A stretch of 64,000 nt of DNA from a virus, in the IMG/VR virus record IMGVR_UViG_3300021959_007960, positions 32,001-96,000 of that record. One strand, 5' to 3'. Of the stretch, positions 31,439-39,528 are shown piece after piece. The translations under genes and the position numbers were made by a program. The notes beneath the pieces were generated by a model. The model worked only from the letters and a program-made list of their open reading frames with translations, had not been told where the DNA came from and ran no database searches. Numbering within the stretch: the stretch's first letter is position 1; each line of letters begins with the position of its first letter.

Positions 31439-33043
31439 TTATCCTTTCAGGAAGGGTGATTCGTCTTTAGCTTTTCCTGATCTTAAATTTTCCAATAATG
31501 CTTTATGATTTAGTATAGACTCCAAAACTTTTTTAGCCATATCCCTGTTGTAATTTACTATGTTTCCTCCAGCAGCTACAAATCCTTGGTCTAGGTGTTG
31601 AATCATTGATTGTATCATAGTAGTTTTTAATAGGTGTGGACTCATGATAATGTTTTTAAGAGCATATGTGATCCATTCCCTATTGCTTGTTATGTCTTTA
31701 GGTATTGTAGGGTTGTTAGAGTCAAACATCATAGGCGTATCCCAATTATTTTTAGGTTCTATACTGTCAAATAGCTTTTCATATGTTTTTGCTGTCTTAT
31801 CCCAACTATAATTGTCTATAATTGCTTTTCTAATATTTACTTGTTTTTCTTTCTGTTCTTCTTTAGAAAGTTCTAGGTACTGAAACAATTGTTTAACTAA
31901 ATCTTTATCGTTAGGAACTGCTCTAAATGCTCCAGTTTCTAATTCTTTAAATAAAGCATACGGTATTTTATTTGTTTTTAATTTAGTAGTTACTTCACTC
32001 ATAGCACTGTAGTCTACTGAGAAAACAGGAACACCACAAGAAGCAGCTTCAAGCTGAGGGATACCTAATCCTTCACATATTGCATATTGAACATAGACAT
32101 CAAAAAAATTATAGATATTTTTTAATTCATTATCTGTTAAGCCGTGTACCACATTAGGAAAACTTGCGCCGTTTTTATGGCAGAAAGGACATTTTGTTTT
32201 AGGTCCTTTCCATAATGAAGCCCATGCTTTTTTACAGTGTGGGCAATAATATGTAAAGAAAGTAAAATTATATGCCTCATACTCTTGTAATAATGAAGGG
32301 ATGTCCCATCCACTTTTTTCGGGGTAGCTGGTATGTAGATATAGATAGACATTACTGTTTTTCGACAGCAATCTTAGATCTCTGATAGCACCCATTAGAT
32401 TAGGAATTAATTTGCGTTTTTGATTCCTCATAACTGCTCCTACCACAAAAGAATCAGTAGGTAGCATGTGTAAAGCTTTGTTTGTTTTGTGAGAAAAATT
32501 GATTGGCCTAAATACATCTGTATCTACAGAATCAGATACGCTTGGACATGTATTTATATTATATCCAGATGCATCCATGTAATTTACAGCCCAATCTGTA
32601 TGACCAGAAACAAAGTCTGCATTAGCAAAAGTTTGCATCCAATGATATTGTTGAGGTAATGAGTCTACAGTAGGAGCAATAACCCAATGAAAATATGGCC
32701 TAAGTAAAGAAGCATCTTGCCAAGCAAGCATCCAATAGTCTCTAATATCAAATACAATATCTGGTCTAAAATCTAAAACAACTTGATCAAATCTCCATTT
32801 ACCAAAAACATTTTCTGGATCAGCATTATATTGTTTAGCATGTTCATGGTCATTACCAACTGCATTAGGATAAACTTTCCATGGAACTTGATTATTATGC
32901 AGATTAGTATTGAAGCAACTTAATTCTGCTATCTTATACTTTCCAGTATTATGTAGTCTTTGTAGGATTTCTCTAGTATACAAGCCGAACCCTGATTTGG
33001 CGACATGGTGTTCACCAACCATTAAAATTCTTTTTTTTCTCAT
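31439..33043 (-). CDS. GT4-family glycosyltransferase with zinc-ribbon insertion
   Basis: SGFG, VMRNQKRK, EGLGIPQLEAASCGVP; CPHC...CPFC insert. Confidence 0.85.
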   Translation of the reverse strand: MRKKRILMVGEHHVAKSGFGLYTREILQRLHNTGKYKIAELSCFNTNLHNNQVPWKVYPNAVGNDHEHAKQYNADPENVFGKWRFDQVVLDFRPDIVFDIRDYWMLAWQDASLLRPYFHWVIAPTVDSLPQQYHWMQTFANADFVSGHTDWAVNYMDASGYNINTCPSVSDSVDTDVFRPINFSHKTNKALHMLPTDSFVVGAVMRNQKRKLIPNLMGAIRDLRLLSKNSNVYLYLHTSYPEKSGWDIPSLLQEYEAYNFTFFTYYCPHCKKAWASLWKGPKTKCPFCHKNGASFPNVVHGLTDNELKNIYNFFDVYVQYAICEGLGIPQLEAASCGVPVFSVDYSAMSEVTTKLKTNKIPYALFKELETGAFRAVPNDKDLVKQLFQYLELSKEEQKEKQVNIRKAIIDNYSWDKTAKTYEKLFDSIEPKNNWDTPMMFDSNNPTIPKDITSNREWITYALKNIIMSPHLLKTTMIQSMIQHLDQGFVAAGGNIVNYNRDMAKKVLESILNHKALLENLRSGKAKDESPFLKG

Positions 33044-33079
33044 ATACTAGAGACTCCTTTTGCTATTAATAAAAAATAA

Positions 33080-33460
33080 TTAGAATGCTACAGGTTGTTG
33101 TTCCTTAGATTCTGTACTAGTGGTACTCTTCTTTAGCTTAGTAATCTTTGAAAAGTTATTTACTCTAACTTTCATAGTACTATGCTTTACTCCATCCTTT
33201 TCCCACTTATCGTTTCTCATCGAACCCTCGACAAAAACCAGGTCTCCTTTTCTGAAAGACTCTGCGATAAGTTCTGCACCACTATCCCATGCTTCACAAG
33301 GAATATATGAAACAATCTTATCTCTCACACCGTTTGCTTTGGTGTATTCTCTAGAGACAGCTACAGTAAAATTAATAACAGAGATTTGTCTATCTCCACT
33401 ATCAATCTTTCTAAGTTCTGGATCTCTAGTAAGATTGCCTCGTAAAATAACTGTATTCAT
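33080..33460 (-). CDS. ssb: Single-stranded DNA-binding protein
   Basis: MNTVILRGNLTRDPELR...KGDLVFVEG; C-terminal VAF. Confidence 0.95.
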   Translation of the reverse strand: MNTVILRGNLTRDPELRKIDSGDRQISVINFTVAVSREYTKANGVRDKIVSYIPCEAWDSGAELIAESFRKGDLVFVEGSMRNDKWEKDGVKHSTMKVRVNNFSKITKLKKSTTSTESKEQQPVAF

Positions 33461-33511
33461 ATCAATTACTCCATATCAAAAGGGTTAAAAAAACAGATTA
33501 AGCTGTTACGT

Positions 33512-33539
33512 ATTATAGGCTAATCTTGAACTTTGTCAA
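33512..33539 (-). promoter_or_regulatory. Consensus sigma70-type promoter upstream of ssb
   Basis: TTGACA-N16-TATAAT on the minus strand. Confidence 0.75.
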
Positions 33540-35137
33540 GACTGTGGAATAAAAATTTTATCCACTATTAAACTTTCCTTATCTTTAGATCTATTTCCTT
33601 TAATAATAACAATATTTCCATCAAATAAAACATTTTGATAAACTCTATATGTCTCTGGAAATATAATAATAGAATCTAAAACTCCTGTACTATCTGACAG
33701 GCTCAAAAATGCCATTTCAGCACCTTTGTTTTTTCCTGATTTAGTTTTGACTACATTTACTTGTTCTATTTCTCCAGCCAATACTACTTCTTTTTGAGCA
33801 TTTTTTAAGAAATCCCCACAAGTACAATTTGTATTAGAAACATCATACATGTCAATTCTGGAGCAGGATATGGAGTATCCTAATAGTTCATATTCTTTAT
33901 CAGAAATCCACTCTATTGAGTCGTTTAAGTCAAATGGTGGTTTGTCTATACTTTTAATATGATTGTTGACAATTGCTTGTCTTCTAATATTAATTTTATC
34001 TAACATTAGTTTTTGCAGTATGTCTTTTATGGTCGAGTCTTCAGAGATGTATTTTTGACATTTTTCTATTTCTTTTTTTGTTAGATCTGAAATTATACTA
34101 TATTCAAATAACATGCAGTTTCTAGTTTTGCCATAATGATCCATTGCCCCAGAAGATATCAAGCCTTTAACTGCTGTGCTATTCAAGTTTAGTAATATAT
34201 TAAAAAGTAATTCTATCCAACTTAATTTATCTATATCATAATCTTTTACTAAAGTCTCTAGCTTCTTAAAAACAGATTGACCAACACCCTTAATATCTGT
34301 CAAACCAAAATATATAATTTTATTTTTTAAAACAAAATATTGGTTTAGCTTTCTAATATCTGGCGTGGAAACCAAGATGTTCATTTGAGAAGCATTTTGT
34401 ATGAGTTCTTTGATTTCTTGTTGTGTATCTATTTTATCCTTAGCAAATTTAAGATATGACGCAAAAAATGTTCTGGTGAAGTGTGCTTTGCTATATGCAG
34501 ATAAGTAAGCATTCATTGCATAGCTAACAGCATGACTTTTATTAAAGCTGTATCTTTGGCTTTTTTCAATCCAAGAAAATATTTGTTCTGCTTGTTCAGC
34601 GGAAATAATATCTAATTTTTTACAACCTTTAATAAATTTGTCTTTTAGCTTAGACATCTCTCCTGCTTTTTTCTTACCAATAGCTTTACGCAGCATATCT
34701 GCTTCCTGTAAGTCAAAACCAGCTAATTCTTTAGCAATCTGCATAGCCTGTTCTTGATAAACCATTTCTCCAAAAGTATTTTTAAGAATAGGTTCTAGAG
34801 CAGGGTGAAAGTAATCTATAGACTCTAGTCCGTTTTTCTTGTCTATGTAATGATTACTAACTGTCTTGCTATCTCTTACAGCCTCCAAACATCCCGGTCG
34901 CATAATACTAATTAAGGCTGAAAGTTGCTCTATAGAATCTGGCTTGAGTTTTTTAGCCATACTTCTTCCAAGTCTGGACTCTAGCTGAAAACAGCCTTTA
35001 GTATTTCCACTTGATATTAAATCCCAAGTAGCATTACATTTTAAGTTTATAGAAGAAATTTGTGGATCAAAAATGATGTTTTCATTTTCGTCTAGAGCAA
35101 ATTTACATCCACAGTTTTTGTATTCAAAGTATTTCAT
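33536..35137 (-). CDS. dnaE: DNA polymerase III alpha, C-terminal half (fingers, HhH, OB fold)
   Basis: GCFQLES, RPG, MVYQEQAM, ADMLRKAIGKKK, YSFNKSHA, GLTDIKGVG, MAFLSLSDSTG. Confidence 0.93.
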   Translation of the reverse strand: MKYFEYKNCGCKFALDENENIIFDPQISSINLKCNATWDLISSGNTKGCFQLESRLGRSMAKKLKPDSIEQLSALISIMRPGCLEAVRDSKTVSNHYIDKKNGLESIDYFHPALEPILKNTFGEMVYQEQAMQIAKELAGFDLQEADMLRKAIGKKKAGEMSKLKDKFIKGCKKLDIISAEQAEQIFSWIEKSQRYSFNKSHAVSYAMNAYLSAYSKAHFTRTFFASYLKFAKDKIDTQQEIKELIQNASQMNILVSTPDIRKLNQYFVLKNKIIYFGLTDIKGVGQSVFKKLETLVKDYDIDKLSWIELLFNILLNLNSTAVKGLISSGAMDHYGKTRNCMLFEYSIISDLTKKEIEKCQKYISEDSTIKDILQKLMLDKINIRRQAIVNNHIKSIDKPPFDLNDSIEWISDKEYELLGYSISCSRIDMYDVSNTNCTCGDFLKNAQKEVVLAGEIEQVNVVKTKSGKNKGAEMAFLSLSDSTGVLDSIIIFPETYRVYQNVLFDGNIVIIKGNRSKDKESLIVDKIFIPQS

Positions 35138-35820
35138 TGTGCAAAAGAATTTCTAAATTTAATCTTTTTGGCTTCATTCCTATGAAGCCTTAAAAACCTA
35201 ATCAACATAGCAGCACAGTCATTGACATCTTTCATAGCGTCATGTGCTCCTTCTTTACTTATGCCTAAATACTCACGCATAGTATCTAGCGAAAGACTTT
35301 TTAAATCTTCATTGTTTTCAAACCAAAGAAACATTAGATGCATTAAATCTATTTTGTCTCTTGGATGAAAAATATTATTGGTTTTATCTTTCCCTACATT
35401 TTTATATTTTAAAGCCATTCTGTCTACTATAGGAATATCAAATCTCAGTATATTATATCCTGCTGCTATTGGAGCAGAGAACATACTTTTACGAGAGCTT
35501 CTAGTGTGATATTTATCTAAGTAGTTAACAAATTGACTCCAAGATTGTTTTTGTGGAGGGAAATTTTGCCAACTGTTTAAGACTTCTGAAGCTGTACTAT
35601 TTTGTGCTTTAGCATGGAACTCTAGTAAGTCGGTTTCGTATTGATGGTCTGGATTCTTATCTAGTAATTCAGGTTTAAGATTTATATTAAACTCAGAATT
35701 AGGGATAACTTCCAATTTATCTGCATCCACCATAACAGCAGCAAGCTGAACAGGGCTACATTGGAACGGATCTTTACCATCTGTTTCAAAGTCAAAAACA
35801 CATATTTTATTTTTTTTCAA
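35134..35820 (-). CDS. DEDDh 3'-5' exonuclease (DnaQ/epsilon-like)
   Basis: FDFETDG, GYNILRFD, AHDAMKD. Confidence 0.9.
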   Translation of the reverse strand: MKKNKICVFDFETDGKDPFQCSPVQLAAVMVDADKLEVIPNSEFNINLKPELLDKNPDHQYETDLLEFHAKAQNSTASEVLNSWQNFPPQKQSWSQFVNYLDKYHTRSSRKSMFSAPIAAGYNILRFDIPIVDRMALKYKNVGKDKTNNIFHPRDKIDLMHLMFLWFENNEDLKSLSLDTMREYLGISKEGAHDAMKDVNDCAAMLIRFLRLHRNEAKKIKFRNSFAQ

Positions 35821-35992
35821 GTCTTGTTACCTCGTCTAAGGGTCGGAATACAGCGTCGGCATTATCTAGCTTTCGTTTTGCGTTACATTTTACTTTACAA
35901 CAGCTAACTCTTACTTCAGGAACCTTTGTGTATTGAGCATTTTGCCCCGGTTTCACGAAGATGTCGTTAATACTTAGATCTTTAAATTGCAT
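35807..35992 (-). CDS. Small Cys-containing hypothetical protein
   Basis: 61 aa filling the gap between dnaE-N and the exonuclease; RBS aaggag. Confidence 0.65.
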   Translation of the reverse strand: MQFKDLSINDIFVKPGQNAQYTKVPEVRVSCCKVKCNAKRKLDNADAVFRPLDEVTRLEKK

Positions 35993-35993
35993 T

Positions 35994-37871
35994 TTATACT
36001 CCTTGTTTTAACATTGAAGATATGTTCATGATTTTATCTAATACCGCTACTCCTAGAATATCAAATTTAATCACTCCAATGTTCTCTAGGTCTTGCATTT
36101 CCATACCAGCTATCAAATTCTTATTTTTGGTATCATATACCATCGGACAAATATTACTTAGTTTTTCTGGAGCAATCACGACTCCAGCAGCATGTTTGGA
36201 TTGATTTGTTTTAGTACCCTCTAGTCTAATAGACTGTTCAAAGCGTTTTGACAAGGGCCCTTGTAGATTTCCTTCTTTATCTATCGAACACCACTCTTTT
36301 AAATCTTTAGCTTTATTTTCTAAAGTCCACTTAATAATAGATGCCTCTCCCTGTTCTTTTTTCATTTCTTCTAACTCATCAGAAATTTTAGCTTCATCAG
36401 GTATGTTTTTAGTAATTTTATTCATGTCTTCAAAAGACAAATTACCATACGCCCTTAAAACATCTTTCAATGCACCTCGACCTTTCATTGTATTAAAAGT
36501 TAACATTTGAGAAACTTTGTCTTCTCCATAAGTTTTTTTAATGTATTCAATAATACCTTCTCTCTTATCAATAGGAACATCTAAATCAATATCTGGCATA
36601 GAAACTCTATCTTTAGTATTTCTACCAGCGTTATAAAATCTATCAAACAATAAGTCGTATTTCATAGGATCAATTGAAGTAATACCCAAAAGGTAAGAAA
36701 CCAGACATCCTGCTGCACTACCTCTACCCGGCCCCGGCAACCAAGAAGAATTTCTAATATATTTAACGATATCTTGTACAATTAAAAAATAACTAGATAG
36801 ACCAGCACCATGCAAAACATCAAATTCATATTTTAATCTGCTGACATATTTATCTTGTATTTGCTTATCTAAGCCATTAAGTTTGTTATTTCTCCAACCT
36901 TCTCTACAAAGTTGTCTTAAATAGTCTGAGTCAGAATCATACTCACTAGGATATTGAAAAGGTGGTAAAATAGGCTGACTAAGAATATTATAATCTTCAC
37001 ACAATTGATCTACAAATATTGTATTTTCTATTTCTTCTTCAGTATGTAAACCATGCATTTCTTCGCTAGATGGTATGTAATACTTGTCACTATTGAAAAA
37101 GCAAGATAATCCAACCTCTATATTATTTTGTAATTTATGATTCACAGCAGATAGAGTTGTTCTCATATTGTTGCACAATAAAATTCTTTGATCTACTGCA
37201 TCTTCTTGTTTTGCATAATGTGCATCGGGTGTGCAGATAACCTTAGTTTGTGTAGAATGTCCAAGCGATCTAATGCTATCAGTAAGTTCAACTTGAATAG
37301 GGTTTGCTATTCTATCTATTAATTGAGCTTCTAAAAATACGTTTTCTTTTCCAAAGATATTATGTAAGTGCGATATGTGGTTTGTTGCGTCTTTCTTCCA
37401 GCTATCACTTATCTTATCTTCGACTACAATACGGTTGGCTAATGTAGAACCTAAATGTCCTGTAATCGCTATAATGTTATCATCTAACAAATCCCCTAAA
37501 GTATCTAAATCCACTCTAGGTTTGTGATAGAATCTATCAGGATGGTTAGACTCTGAAACTATTTTAATTAAAGTTTTCCATCCCTGTAGATTTTTACATA
37601 ATACAACAAGGTGTTCTAGTTTTGCGTTTTCTTTTTTCTTTTCTTTAGAACACTTTTTAGATATGTAAAGTTCACAACCTAAAATGGGTTTGATATTATT
37701 GCTTTTTAATTGTTGATAAAATTGAACGGCTCCAGAGATTGAACCATGATCTGTTATAGCACAAGACGTTGCTCCTATAGTTTTACATCTGTTAACAATG
37801 TCTTTAGGTTTACTTAAACCATCCAATAAAGAATAATGAGTGTGAACATGCAAAGGAGTATATAATTTCAT
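35994..37871 (-). CDS. dnaE: DNA polymerase III alpha, N-terminal half (PHP + palm/thumb)
   Basis: HVHTHYSLLD, TDHG, DAHY, GPGRGSAAG, MPDIDLD, SKHAAGVV, KFDILG. Confidence 0.95.
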   Translation of the reverse strand: MKLYTPLHVHTHYSLLDGLSKPKDIVNRCKTIGATSCAITDHGSISGAVQFYQQLKSNNIKPILGCELYISKKCSKEKKKENAKLEHLVVLCKNLQGWKTLIKIVSESNHPDRFYHKPRVDLDTLGDLLDDNIIAITGHLGSTLANRIVVEDKISDSWKKDATNHISHLHNIFGKENVFLEAQLIDRIANPIQVELTDSIRSLGHSTQTKVICTPDAHYAKQEDAVDQRILLCNNMRTTLSAVNHKLQNNIEVGLSCFFNSDKYYIPSSEEMHGLHTEEEIENTIFVDQLCEDYNILSQPILPPFQYPSEYDSDSDYLRQLCREGWRNNKLNGLDKQIQDKYVSRLKYEFDVLHGAGLSSYFLIVQDIVKYIRNSSWLPGPGRGSAAGCLVSYLLGITSIDPMKYDLLFDRFYNAGRNTKDRVSMPDIDLDVPIDKREGIIEYIKKTYGEDKVSQMLTFNTMKGRGALKDVLRAYGNLSFEDMNKITKNIPDEAKISDELEEMKKEQGEASIIKWTLENKAKDLKEWCSIDKEGNLQGPLSKRFEQSIRLEGTKTNQSKHAAGVVIAPEKLSNICPMVYDTKNKNLIAGMEMQDLENIGVIKFDILGVAVLDKIMNISSMLKQGV

Positions 37872-38911
37872 TCTGTGCTTCCTGGGGCCTTGTAGTGTCC
37901 TATATTATAGCCTGGAACAGTGTATTCGTCAACAGTATTTTTGTATCCTTTTACAGAAATGTCATGAGCCACCTGTTCGCATTTGGTCATAGGAGTATTT
38001 ACAGAACAAACTTGGCCATCCCTATATTCTACCAATGGCTGTATATCGGTATCTTCGAATGTAGTTTTCCCATAATGACACAACTTAGTGCATTTCCAAG
38101 TCTTTTTTAATTCTGGTTTGACAGTATTTTTAATATGTTTAAATTTTTTCTTTAGTAATTCTTCAGTTTTACATAGGTCTTTTTTACTAAACGTCATACT
38201 AAAAGGACCACCATCATTTATAAAATATATAGTTACGATACAATGATCTATTTCAGGATAAAGTTTATTTACTGCATAATAATAAATCATTAGCTGTGGA
38301 TCAATCTCTAATTTTTCTTGCGTCTTTTCCTCTCCGGTCGCCCAATTAAGTCTACGTCCTGTTTTCCAATCAATAATTTCAGCAGTATTTTCGTTTGGTT
38401 TTGTTATTAAGTCAATTGTTCCTTTGATAGATAATTGACCTTCTAGTGGCCCATCTTTCGTGTCATACTTGAATTTAGCCCAAGGCTTATCAATAGTTAT
38501 ATCAAATTGTTGTTCTGGATATAATATATTTTTATTACGAGGATCAAACATTCCATCAGCATAATTAATTGCTTTATATGTCCACTTAGAGCAATCTTTA
38601 AAATCAACATTTGTCCACTTATGATGAGTAAAAGCACTAGTATAATAGGTATATACAGACTCTATAATACCGTCCAAATTGTAATCTTCAACATATACCT
38701 CCCCTACAATATCGTCTGTAAAAGACCGATTACCTTGTTGTTGGTGATACTTAATAAATGCCAAAATTTCTAATACTTTATGTACAATAGTACCCTTGTC
38801 TGCTTTTTTATTAGAAGGAGATCTATACCCTAATACATAATCAAAGAAGTATTGTTGTTCGCACATATTGTGTGTGTTGTAGGATGAACTACGAAAGTAT
38901 GTAATTATAAT
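37868..38911 (-). CDS. Cas4/RecB-like PD-(D/E)XK exonuclease with probable Fe-S cysteines
   Basis: KGTIVH, GTIDLI, IIDWKTG, QLMIY, N-terminal Cys and C-terminal Cys cluster. ORF track starts at 38866 but the frame extends to a likely ATT start at 38911. Confidence 0.85.
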   Translation of the reverse strand: MIITYFRSSSYNTHNMCEQQYFFDYVLGYRSPSNKKADKGTIVHKVLEILAFIKYHQQQGNRSFTDDIVGEVYVEDYNLDGIIESVYTYYTSAFTHHKWTNVDFKDCSKWTYKAINYADGMFDPRNKNILYPEQQFDITIDKPWAKFKYDTKDGPLEGQLSIKGTIDLITKPNENTAEIIDWKTGRRLNWATGEEKTQEKLEIDPQLMIYYYAVNKLYPEIDHCIVTIYFINDGGPFSMTFSKKDLCKTEELLKKKFKHIKNTVKPELKKTWKCTKLCHYGKTTFEDTDIQPLVEYRDGQVCSVNTPMTKCEQVAHDISVKGYKNTVDEYTVPGYNIGHYKAPGSTE

Positions 38912-39528
38912 GATATCACCTTTTGTTCTGTAAGAAAATTATAAATATGTTGGTCTTTATCTTCAATAGATAACGAGTGATTATCAATAATTAAATCAAA
39001 ATTAGATTGGTCGTAGCTGGCTTCATCTAGTGCAGTTTCACTAGCATGAGTTGACGAATACAAACTCCTATCTAGTTTTATAACTAATCCACCTGCTTGT
39101 TTAACAGCTGCAACTTCATTAGGAAAACGACAGTCTGCAATTAAAGCTAACGGGAAATTCTCTTTTTTTATTTTTCTAAGCGTAGCATCGGACCATACAT
39201 TGTTTTGCATCCTTCTTAATACATCAGTTCCCACATATTGCATCACCTCTCGCGCTGTCATTTGTGCGTCAATACCTGGCCAAAAACAATTAACCAGTTC
39301 ATTTTTATTTTCATCTGTACCATAACACTGTGCTTCAGTTAAACCTAATATGTCTATACACAGCTTTTTTAATGGGTCAGCAAAATTATATGTGCTGACA
39401 ACTTCGCAGTAATCGCTTTGATCGAGAACCGTTCTATATTTATAGTAATGATTAGTAAAAAGTCTAGAAGCAAATTTACACGCACTAGTTTTACCAGATT
39501 GTTTTTTACCAGCAAATGCAATAATCAT
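38905..39528 (-). CDS. Deoxynucleoside monophosphate kinase
   Basis: GKKQSGKT, FADPLK, REVMQYVGT, ADCRFPNE, HASE. Confidence 0.9.
   Translation of the reverse strand: MIIAFAGKKQSGKTSACKFASRLFTNHYYKYRTVLDQSDYCEVVSTYNFADPLKKLCIDILGLTEAQCYGTDENKNELVNCFWPGIDAQMTAREVMQYVGTDVLRRMQNNVWSDATLRKIKKENFPLALIADCRFPNEVAAVKQAGGLVIKLDRSLYSSTHASETALDEASYDQSNFDLIIDNHSLSIEDKDQHIYNFLTEQKVISL

Follow-up and report, generated by a model that had tools for sequence, protein, structure and literature searches.

DnaE Encoded by Two Genes with an Exonuclease Gene in the Break: Analysis of a Phage Replication Module

Introduction

The alpha subunit of DNA polymerase III (Pol III), DnaE, is known as a single catalytic chain or as a chain made whole by an intein, and in the structures of the Escherichia coli and Taq enzymes the palm carboxylates and the basic and steric-gate residues of the fingers form one active site. 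The present work deals with a stretch of viral DNA of 64,000 nucleotides (IMG/VR record IMGVR_UViG_3300021959_007960, positions 32,001 to 96,000; hereafter the window), in which DnaE is encoded by two genes, dnaE-N and dnaE-C, and a gene of an epsilon-like exonuclease is located between them.

Replication enzymes divided between two genes have been described in several phages. In Aeromonas phage 25 the polymerase gene is divided, and its products gp43A and gp43B purify together and show polymerase activity; NrdA of phage Aeh1, likewise split, is also an active enzyme (PMC2988022). In the group 2.2 jumbo phages, a "minimal" Pol III alpha is split into distant genes (Iyer et al. 2021, PMC7824862). 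No description of a full-length DnaE cut between palm and fingers, with an epsilon-like gene in the cut, was found in surveys of viral and bacterial polymerases. An earlier reading of the window, made from its letters and open reading frames (ORFs) alone (the sequence-only reading), proposed a non-covalent multi-subunit C-family replicase. The data considered below support this proposal as the best reading, because a conserved active site is divided between the two products and no other polymerase was recognised among the sequences of a complete relative.

The Two Halves of DnaE

The dnaE-N gene (positions 35994-37871 of the window, minus strand; 625 aa) encodes the PHP and palm/thumb parts of Pol III alpha, and the dnaE-C gene (33536-35137, minus strand; 533 aa) encodes the fingers, HhH and OB parts, as follows from Pfam and PHROG matches and from structure alignments. 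In the first product, PF02811 (PHP; E = 6e-38, residues 7-183) and PF07733 (E = 3e-73) were recognised, as well as the catalytic Asp triad D429, D431 and D604. The chain ends with ...KQGV and a stop codon 22 residues after the KFDILG motif, to which D604 belongs, that is, shortly after the third catalytic Asp, as had been noticed in the sequence-only reading. In the second product, PF17657 (1e-47) and PF14579 (5e-8) were found, and the match to the OB domain PF01336 reaches 21.7 bits, below the cut-off of 27; the AlphaFold2 (AF2) model contains a strand-rich domain at residues 450-532, at the position expected for the OB fold. The separate start of dnaE-C ahead of the GCFQLES motif, which is placed at residues 48-54, was also read correctly.

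On the profile of full-length phage DnaE, PHROG 405 (1190 positions), dnaE-N occupies positions 43-616 and dnaE-C positions 622-1077, so that the two halves together would make a whole DnaE with no part of the enzyme missing. The PHP, palm and fingers/HhH/OB parts are all present, and it is only the continuity of the polypeptide that is lost. The solved alpha structures from E. coli (2HNH/2HQA) and Taq (2HPI) place the break more closely. The dnaE-N product aligns to residues 7-628 of Taq alpha and up to about residue 565 of E. coli alpha (its residue 614 corresponds to Taq 628 and its residue 613 to E. coli 565), and dnaE-C aligns to residues 586-899 of E. coli alpha and 651-951 of Taq alpha (residue 27 corresponds to E. 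coli 586 and residue 33 to Taq 651). Judging from these alignments, the cut lies just past the palm strand and helix bearing the third catalytic Asp, at approximately residue 577-585 of the E. coli protein.

The polymerase active site is thereby divided between two genes, and both its parts are strictly conserved. No exception to D429, D431 and D604 occurs among the 152 family sequences, and R150, K151, F198, N199, S201 and H202 of the fingers are invariant, among other motifs, in the dnaE-C of the clade. By analogy with the single-chain enzymes, neither half should polymerise alone, and, as both parts of the divided site are retained so strictly, the halves would have to work together.

Conservation of the PHP domain is of a different kind. 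In the window a ligand residue is present at each of the nine metal-ligand positions (H8, H10, D17, H42, E67, H87, H139, D216 and H218), but, depending on the position, the ligands are lost in one-third to two-thirds of the 152 family members. The phage of the window may thus possess, besides the exonuclease, a second potential proofreading nuclease in its PHP domain.

Distribution of the Break

When IMG/VR was queried with dnaE-N of the window and of three relatives, about 150 loci were obtained, and both halves were visible in 139 of these. Of the 139 loci, 137 are broken at this site and contain the exonuclease gene in the break, at dnaE-N identities of 37-95%, and in close relatives the split point is identical to the residue. 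Conservation of the split point in relatives, proposed in the sequence-only reading as a check, was confirmed in this way. The halves always co-occur, in the same order, near helicase, primase and SSB genes.

The halves are 635 to 4510 nt apart. In some relatives the gap contains additional genes, encoding ThyX, an FkbM-type methyltransferase, a DUF1559/N-methyl pilin-like protein, UDG, a LAGLIDADG endonuclease or a second copy of the exonuclease; loci of this type are L121 (6905-11407), L110 (6905-10391), L048 (6548-9230) and L140 (6623-8359). Since unrelated genes are accommodated in the larger gaps, the halves behave as fully independent cistrons. Proteins of the DUF1559 type that carry a methylation motif at the N-terminus are characteristic of Planctomycetota, and the DUF1559 gene in the gap of relatives may be a clue to the host. 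No relatives were found in 185,579 prokaryote genomes, and hence no host clue was obtained from prophages.

A search of 1.84 billion cluster representatives (50% identity) gave a similar picture. Among the best 150 hits, which were examined and show 38-64% identity, about 140 comprise the N-half only and end 18-54 residues after KFDILG; these proteins consist of 437-1421 aa, several being lengthened by inteins. In one metagenomic representative of 762 aa (P0124), dnaE-N is fused C-terminally to a circularly permuted YpsA SLOG domain (PF12694, 1.6e-35). Two other proteins, P0017 and P0118, gave no viral loci when used as queries.

Genes in the Break

Two genes, both on the minus strand, fill the break in the window, in agreement with the sequence-only reading. 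The gene nearest to dnaE-N (35807-35992) encodes a protein of 61 aa, and the second (35134-35820) encodes a DnaQ/epsilon-like DEDDh 3'-5' exonuclease of 228 aa. The exonuclease was recognised by PF00929 (37.4 bits at a cut-off of 24) and by PHROG 192, "DNA polymerase exonuclease subunit". Its motifs Exo I, Exo II and Exo III are present, and the DEDDh residues D10, E12, D128, H193 and D198 are invariant in 23 relatives. The closest solved structure, a weak match (9e-7), is the Thermotoga PolC-type exonuclease 2P1J.

An ORF of 59-64 aa stands between dnaE-N and the exonuclease gene in every close relative. The 61-aa product has no Pfam or PHROG match; its invariant residues are F12, K23, S30, C31 and C32, the last three forming an SCC motif. 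Its AF2 model, with a mean predicted local distance difference test (pLDDT) of 92.7, is mostly beta-strand and suggests a small SH3-like barrel, and the structural matches of this barrel are generic only (the C-terminal domain of ribosomal protein L2 and the KOW, FeoA and CarD types; best Z 5.2). Synteny and the model make the protein a candidate accessory subunit. An analogue of theta (HolE) was also considered and is not favoured, the predicted fold being an SH3-like barrel with generic matches only; theta is a helical protein.

In the sequence-only reading, Cys clusters in the small ORF and at the N-terminus of dnaE-C were suggested as possible aids to assembly. The dnaE-C product does begin with a clade-specific extension of about 20 aa containing CGC, and C9, C11 and C34 are invariant in the clade, as is the SCC motif of the 61-aa protein, while the third Cys of that protein is not conserved. 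The 61-aa protein and these Cys residues may stabilise the complex of this clade. On the sequences compared, they cannot be what makes the split of DnaE workable in general, because the 61-aa ORF is absent from the more distant split relatives L041, L042, L139 and L145, in which the exonuclease begins 8-30 nt after dnaE-N, and the Cys extension is absent at least from the cultured Rossellomorea phage phiT1.

The genes of the window are closely packed. The ATG of the 61-aa ORF is located 1 nt past the stop codon of dnaE-N (...KQGV TAA), and a Shine-Dalgarno sequence, AAGGAG, lies within the final dnaE-N codons, 6 nt before this ATG. The exonuclease starts with TTG, overlapping the 3' end of the 61-aa ORF (in the relative L002 the corresponding region contains ATG), and its stop codon overlaps with the ATG of dnaE-C as ATGA. 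The 856 nt between the dnaE-N stop and the dnaE-C ATG are coding DNA of two overlapping conserved ORFs. In consensus scans of the region from the dnaE-N stop to the last 170 nt of dnaE-C, no promoter match equal to the one upstream of dnaE-N was found and no terminator-like site was listed. In their arrangement the four genes resemble a single unit with translational coupling. A slippage product joining the 61-aa ORF to the exonuclease at a run of eight A was rejected, since the run is confined to the window and L001; a plain ATG overlap in most other relatives also disfavours it.

Search for Splicing Elements

The sequence-only reading named RNA splicing and protein ligation as processes that could yield one chain, and both were examined at the level of sequence. 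The Rfam scan (E <= 1) revealed no intron family at positions 32500-39000 of the window, and no Hint or intein domain was found by Pfam in either DnaE half. The termini of both halves at the break align to DnaE sequence, in contrast to what is expected of a split intein, and the YSFNKSH motif (residues 196-202 of dnaE-C) is uninterrupted. The absence of intein residues from the ends and the intactness of this motif had been stated correctly from the letters. An intron-interrupted dnaE was rejected for lack of an Rfam intron and because the interval is filled by two conserved overlapping ORFs, and an intein at the palm/fingers break was rejected because there is no Hint domain and the termini align to DnaE.

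Split inteins do occur in this phage family at other sites of DnaE, which serves as an internal positive control for intein detection. In the relatives L032-L037, dnaE-N is interrupted at GPGRG|SAAG, near residue 384, by an N-intein starting with CF(L/V)PD, about 0.8 kb closed by stop codons and a C-intein ending with VHN|S; the intein ends in L033 are CFLPD...VHN|S. In L008, dnaE-C is interrupted at YSFNK|SH, residue 200, with the intein ends CLDPS...TSN|S. The intein halves in these loci are separated by about 0.8-1 kb, and the interval in L008 contains an ORF. As read from their sequences, these relatives have DnaE encoded in three pieces. Such a layout corresponds to the "fractured gene" arrangement described by Dassa et al. 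2009 (PMC2677866). At the palm/fingers break, no split intein was found in any locus.

Unsplit Relatives and Phylogeny

Some relatives are continuous across the palm/fingers site, namely 6 of the 150 representatives and only two IMG/VR loci, L134 and L135. In both loci the exonuclease gene stands just upstream of dnaE; in L134 this homologous gene is directly upstream, and a split intein is present at YSFNK. DnaE of Bacillus phage PK-1 is also unsplit. The record of phage vB_BpsS-140 is unannotated at this locus. The closest database hits labelled as phage, the GenBank entries MT837297.1 and MT835501.1 (L050 and L051; "Bacteriophage sp.", human faeces), contain a contiguous DnaE of 1150-1170 aa, look like bacterial DNA and served only as outgroup; the N-terminus of the ORF downstream in MT835501 reads by eye like 6-phosphofructokinase.

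Trees were constructed on dnaE-N columns and rooted with cellular DnaE, using FastTree (154 rows) and a quick IQ-TREE run (56 rows). Phage phiT1 is the first branch of the rooted tree, and the six unsplit representatives form two small clades nested among split forms, on which both trees agree (97-99 in the Shimodaira-Hasegawa-like approximate likelihood ratio test of IQ-TREE). A topology in which a single branch sets all unsplit rows apart was rejected by the approximately unbiased test with p = 0.0004, a value weakened by the fact that the unsplit group was named after the tree had been seen. According to these trees, the split state has changed at least three times; one old split followed by two re-fusions would be the most economical history, and repeated splitting or recombination are its alternatives.

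Complete Relative and Replication Module

A complete relative, the IMG/VR contig G001 that carries locus L012, consists of 138,480 bp with terminal repeats and was estimated by CheckV as 100% complete. It encodes a single DnaE palm, and neither a PolA nor a PolB domain was detected in it. As DnaE is the only polymerase of this genome, the two-piece enzyme is most likely the phage replicase, judging from gene content. No match to the beta clamp (PF02768) or the clamp loader (PF13177) was obtained in the same contig; presumably, the two-piece polymerase uses accessory or processivity factors of the host or works without them.

The window itself, which derives from an uncultured aquatic phage, is AT-rich, phage-like DNA with a GC content of about 32%. 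Its replication module is located on the minus strand, from approximately 42 kb down to 33 kb, and is arranged in the order DnaB helicase, Toprim primase, dNMP kinase, PD-(D/E)XK nuclease, the four split-dnaE genes and SSB. The PD-(D/E)XK nuclease gene (37868-38866, minus strand; PF12705) is the upstream neighbour of dnaE-N, and it stands directly upstream in nearly all tabulated relatives; in L028 (4064-6001) it is broken by an insertion of about 950 nt. The SSB gene (33080-33460, minus strand) was assigned by PF00436 and synteny and is the downstream neighbour. A consensus scan placed sigma-70-like candidates in front of dnaE-N and of ssb, both on the minus strand. The first (37904-37932), a pattern match only, agrees with the consensus at 11 of 12 positions and lies about 33 nt upstream of dnaE-N. 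The second, TTGACA-16-TATAAT (33512-33539; 12 of 12), is directed at ssb and overlaps the stop codon of dnaE-C.

Discussion

In our opinion, the most probable product of this locus is a non-covalent replicase of alpha-N, alpha-C and an epsilon-like subunit, made from one coupled gene block, and we regard this with good, though not full, confidence. Separate polypeptides would be translated from the block in the order alpha-N, 61-aa protein, epsilon-like exonuclease and alpha-C. The alpha-N chain would supply the PHP domain and the metal-binding Asp triad, and alpha-C the dNTP- and template-binding fingers with the HhH and OB parts. The halves are proposed to dock non-covalently along the interface that is normally shared within a single chain, and the exonuclease would join as a further subunit, accompanied in this clade by the SH3-like 61-aa protein.

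Other explanations of the two genes have to be compared with this one. The break could be supposed to be an artefact, produced by misassembly or by a sequencing error that shifts the frame, or else the mark of a pseudogene in decay, because the window is a single metagenomic sequence; nevertheless, the identical arrangement in 137 independent contigs at 37-95% identity and in cultured phiT1, the intactness of all four ORFs with their conservation at the protein level, and an interval of coding DNA with no frameshift leave this explanation a negligible probability, and the assembly error envisaged in the sequence-only reading is excluded. Another idea is that some process that escaped recognition, whether similar to an intein, similar to a ligase or a trans-splicing of RNA, joins the halves covalently. 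It is suggested by the trans-splicing of cyanobacterial DnaE, by the split inteins at other dnaE sites in this very family and by the conserved Cys at the N-terminus of dnaE-C. However, the 22-residue tail after KFDILG aligns to a normal DnaE helix, and a tail so short and so DnaE-like leaves no room for an N-intein; there is neither a Hint domain nor an intron, phiT1 has the same break without the Cys extension, and up to 4.5 kb of unrelated, ordinary genes may separate the halves. We therefore consider covalent joining very improbable.

Somewhat more weight, although still little, should be given to the possibility that the halves have diverged and no longer constitute one polymerase, with dnaE-N and the exonuclease acting, for example, as a nuclease or repair module and host Pol III replicating the phage. 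The loss of PHP metal ligands in many members of the family is in line with such divergence, and in the complete relative no phage clamp or clamp loader was detected, so that host factors would be needed anyway. At the same time, the Asp triad is invariant in 152 sequences and the dNTP-binding motifs of the fingers are invariant in dnaE-C; invariance of both parts of the active site makes sense only if polymerisation is under selection and both halves contribute to it. The constant co-occurrence and order of the genes beside those of helicase, primase and SSB also argue against divergence, which we judge unlikely.

Several observations weigh against the non-covalent replicase itself. Unsplit relatives exist, and the split is consequently not required mechanistically. 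No natural fusions of the exonuclease or of the 61-aa protein to either DnaE half were found, by searches that were weak. The AF2 model of dnaE-C alone has a pLDDT of 73, which is moderate; this value fits the need for a partner and proves none. Finally, that the chains assemble physically, in what stoichiometry they do so and what the exonuclease and the 61-aa protein contribute to the complex are inferred from sequence.

A broader interpretation can be offered only tentatively, and we are inclined to doubt it more than to accept it. The break may go back to the ancestor of a very large radiation of phages from aquatic habitats, and the enzyme may be a new quaternary form of Pol III in which the exonuclease (and, in this clade, the 61-aa barrel) is an integral structural component, seated at the palm/fingers seam or spanning it. 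The single-chain DnaE of some relatives would in that case result from secondary fusion, the exonuclease gene having been shifted to a place just upstream. If this is true, docking of the exonuclease at the seam would explain why its gene has been kept in the break.

An abundant environmental group of phages apparently runs its sole replicase with an active site divided between two proteins. Such an enzyme could be used to study communication between palm and fingers in C-family polymerases and to test whether a proofreader can be built into the seam of a polymerase, and the family may show in what ways split enzymes come about and are fused again. As to annotation, these phages will be scored wrongly by gene callers and polymerase surveys that expect a protein of about 1100 aa.

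Comparison with Known Systems

A cultured example, phage phiT1 (gp20/gp19/gp18; PV767480.1), shares the position of the DnaE break and likewise has a small ORF separating the halves; its dnaE-N ends with ...QGVAV, and its dnaE-C starts just before the IPLDD...GVFQLES block. It differs from the window in the low identity (about 32%), in a gap ORF of 49 aa unrelated to the 61-aa protein, and in having neither an exonuclease gene in the gap nor the Cys extension. In the phiT1 record each of the two halves carries just the annotation "DNA polymerase III subunit alpha".

With the alpha-epsilon-theta core of E. coli, the phage system shares the order of PHP, palm/thumb, fingers, HhH and OB parts, the three catalytic Asp residues and a separate DEDDh proofreader. 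However, the phage alpha consists of two polypeptides, the break between which accommodates the exonuclease gene, the small third protein is predicted to be a beta-barrel (theta is helical), and the complete relative lacks a detected clamp or clamp loader.

DnaE is also encoded in two genes in cyanobacteria, where a split intein joins the products, and split inteins with an apparent endonuclease gene at YSFNK|SH and GPGRG|SAAG in relatives of the window extend the likeness to split-intein DnaE and fractured genes (PMC2677866). The phage break is nevertheless found elsewhere in the protein, has no intein halves and contains, instead of a homing endonuclease alone, a gene of replication, and its products are proposed to stay separate.

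In gp43A/gp43B of Aeromonas phages 25 and 44RR and in NrdA of Aeh1, an essential replication enzyme is likewise divided into two cistrons by inserted DNA, with no splicing. The gp43 polymerase belongs to the B family, whereas that of the window belongs to the C family; its split is known in few phages, in contrast to a split fixed across a huge radiation, and the insert in the window is the gene of the enzyme's own proofreading partner. The Pol III alpha of group 2.2 jumbo phages is similar in that a C-family module occurs as two proteins proposed to reconstitute one enzyme, but it is devoid of PHP and other domains, is split inside the nucleotidyltransferase module and accompanies PolB, while in the window a full-length DnaE, apparently the sole polymerase, is cut between palm and fingers and encoded by adjacent genes.

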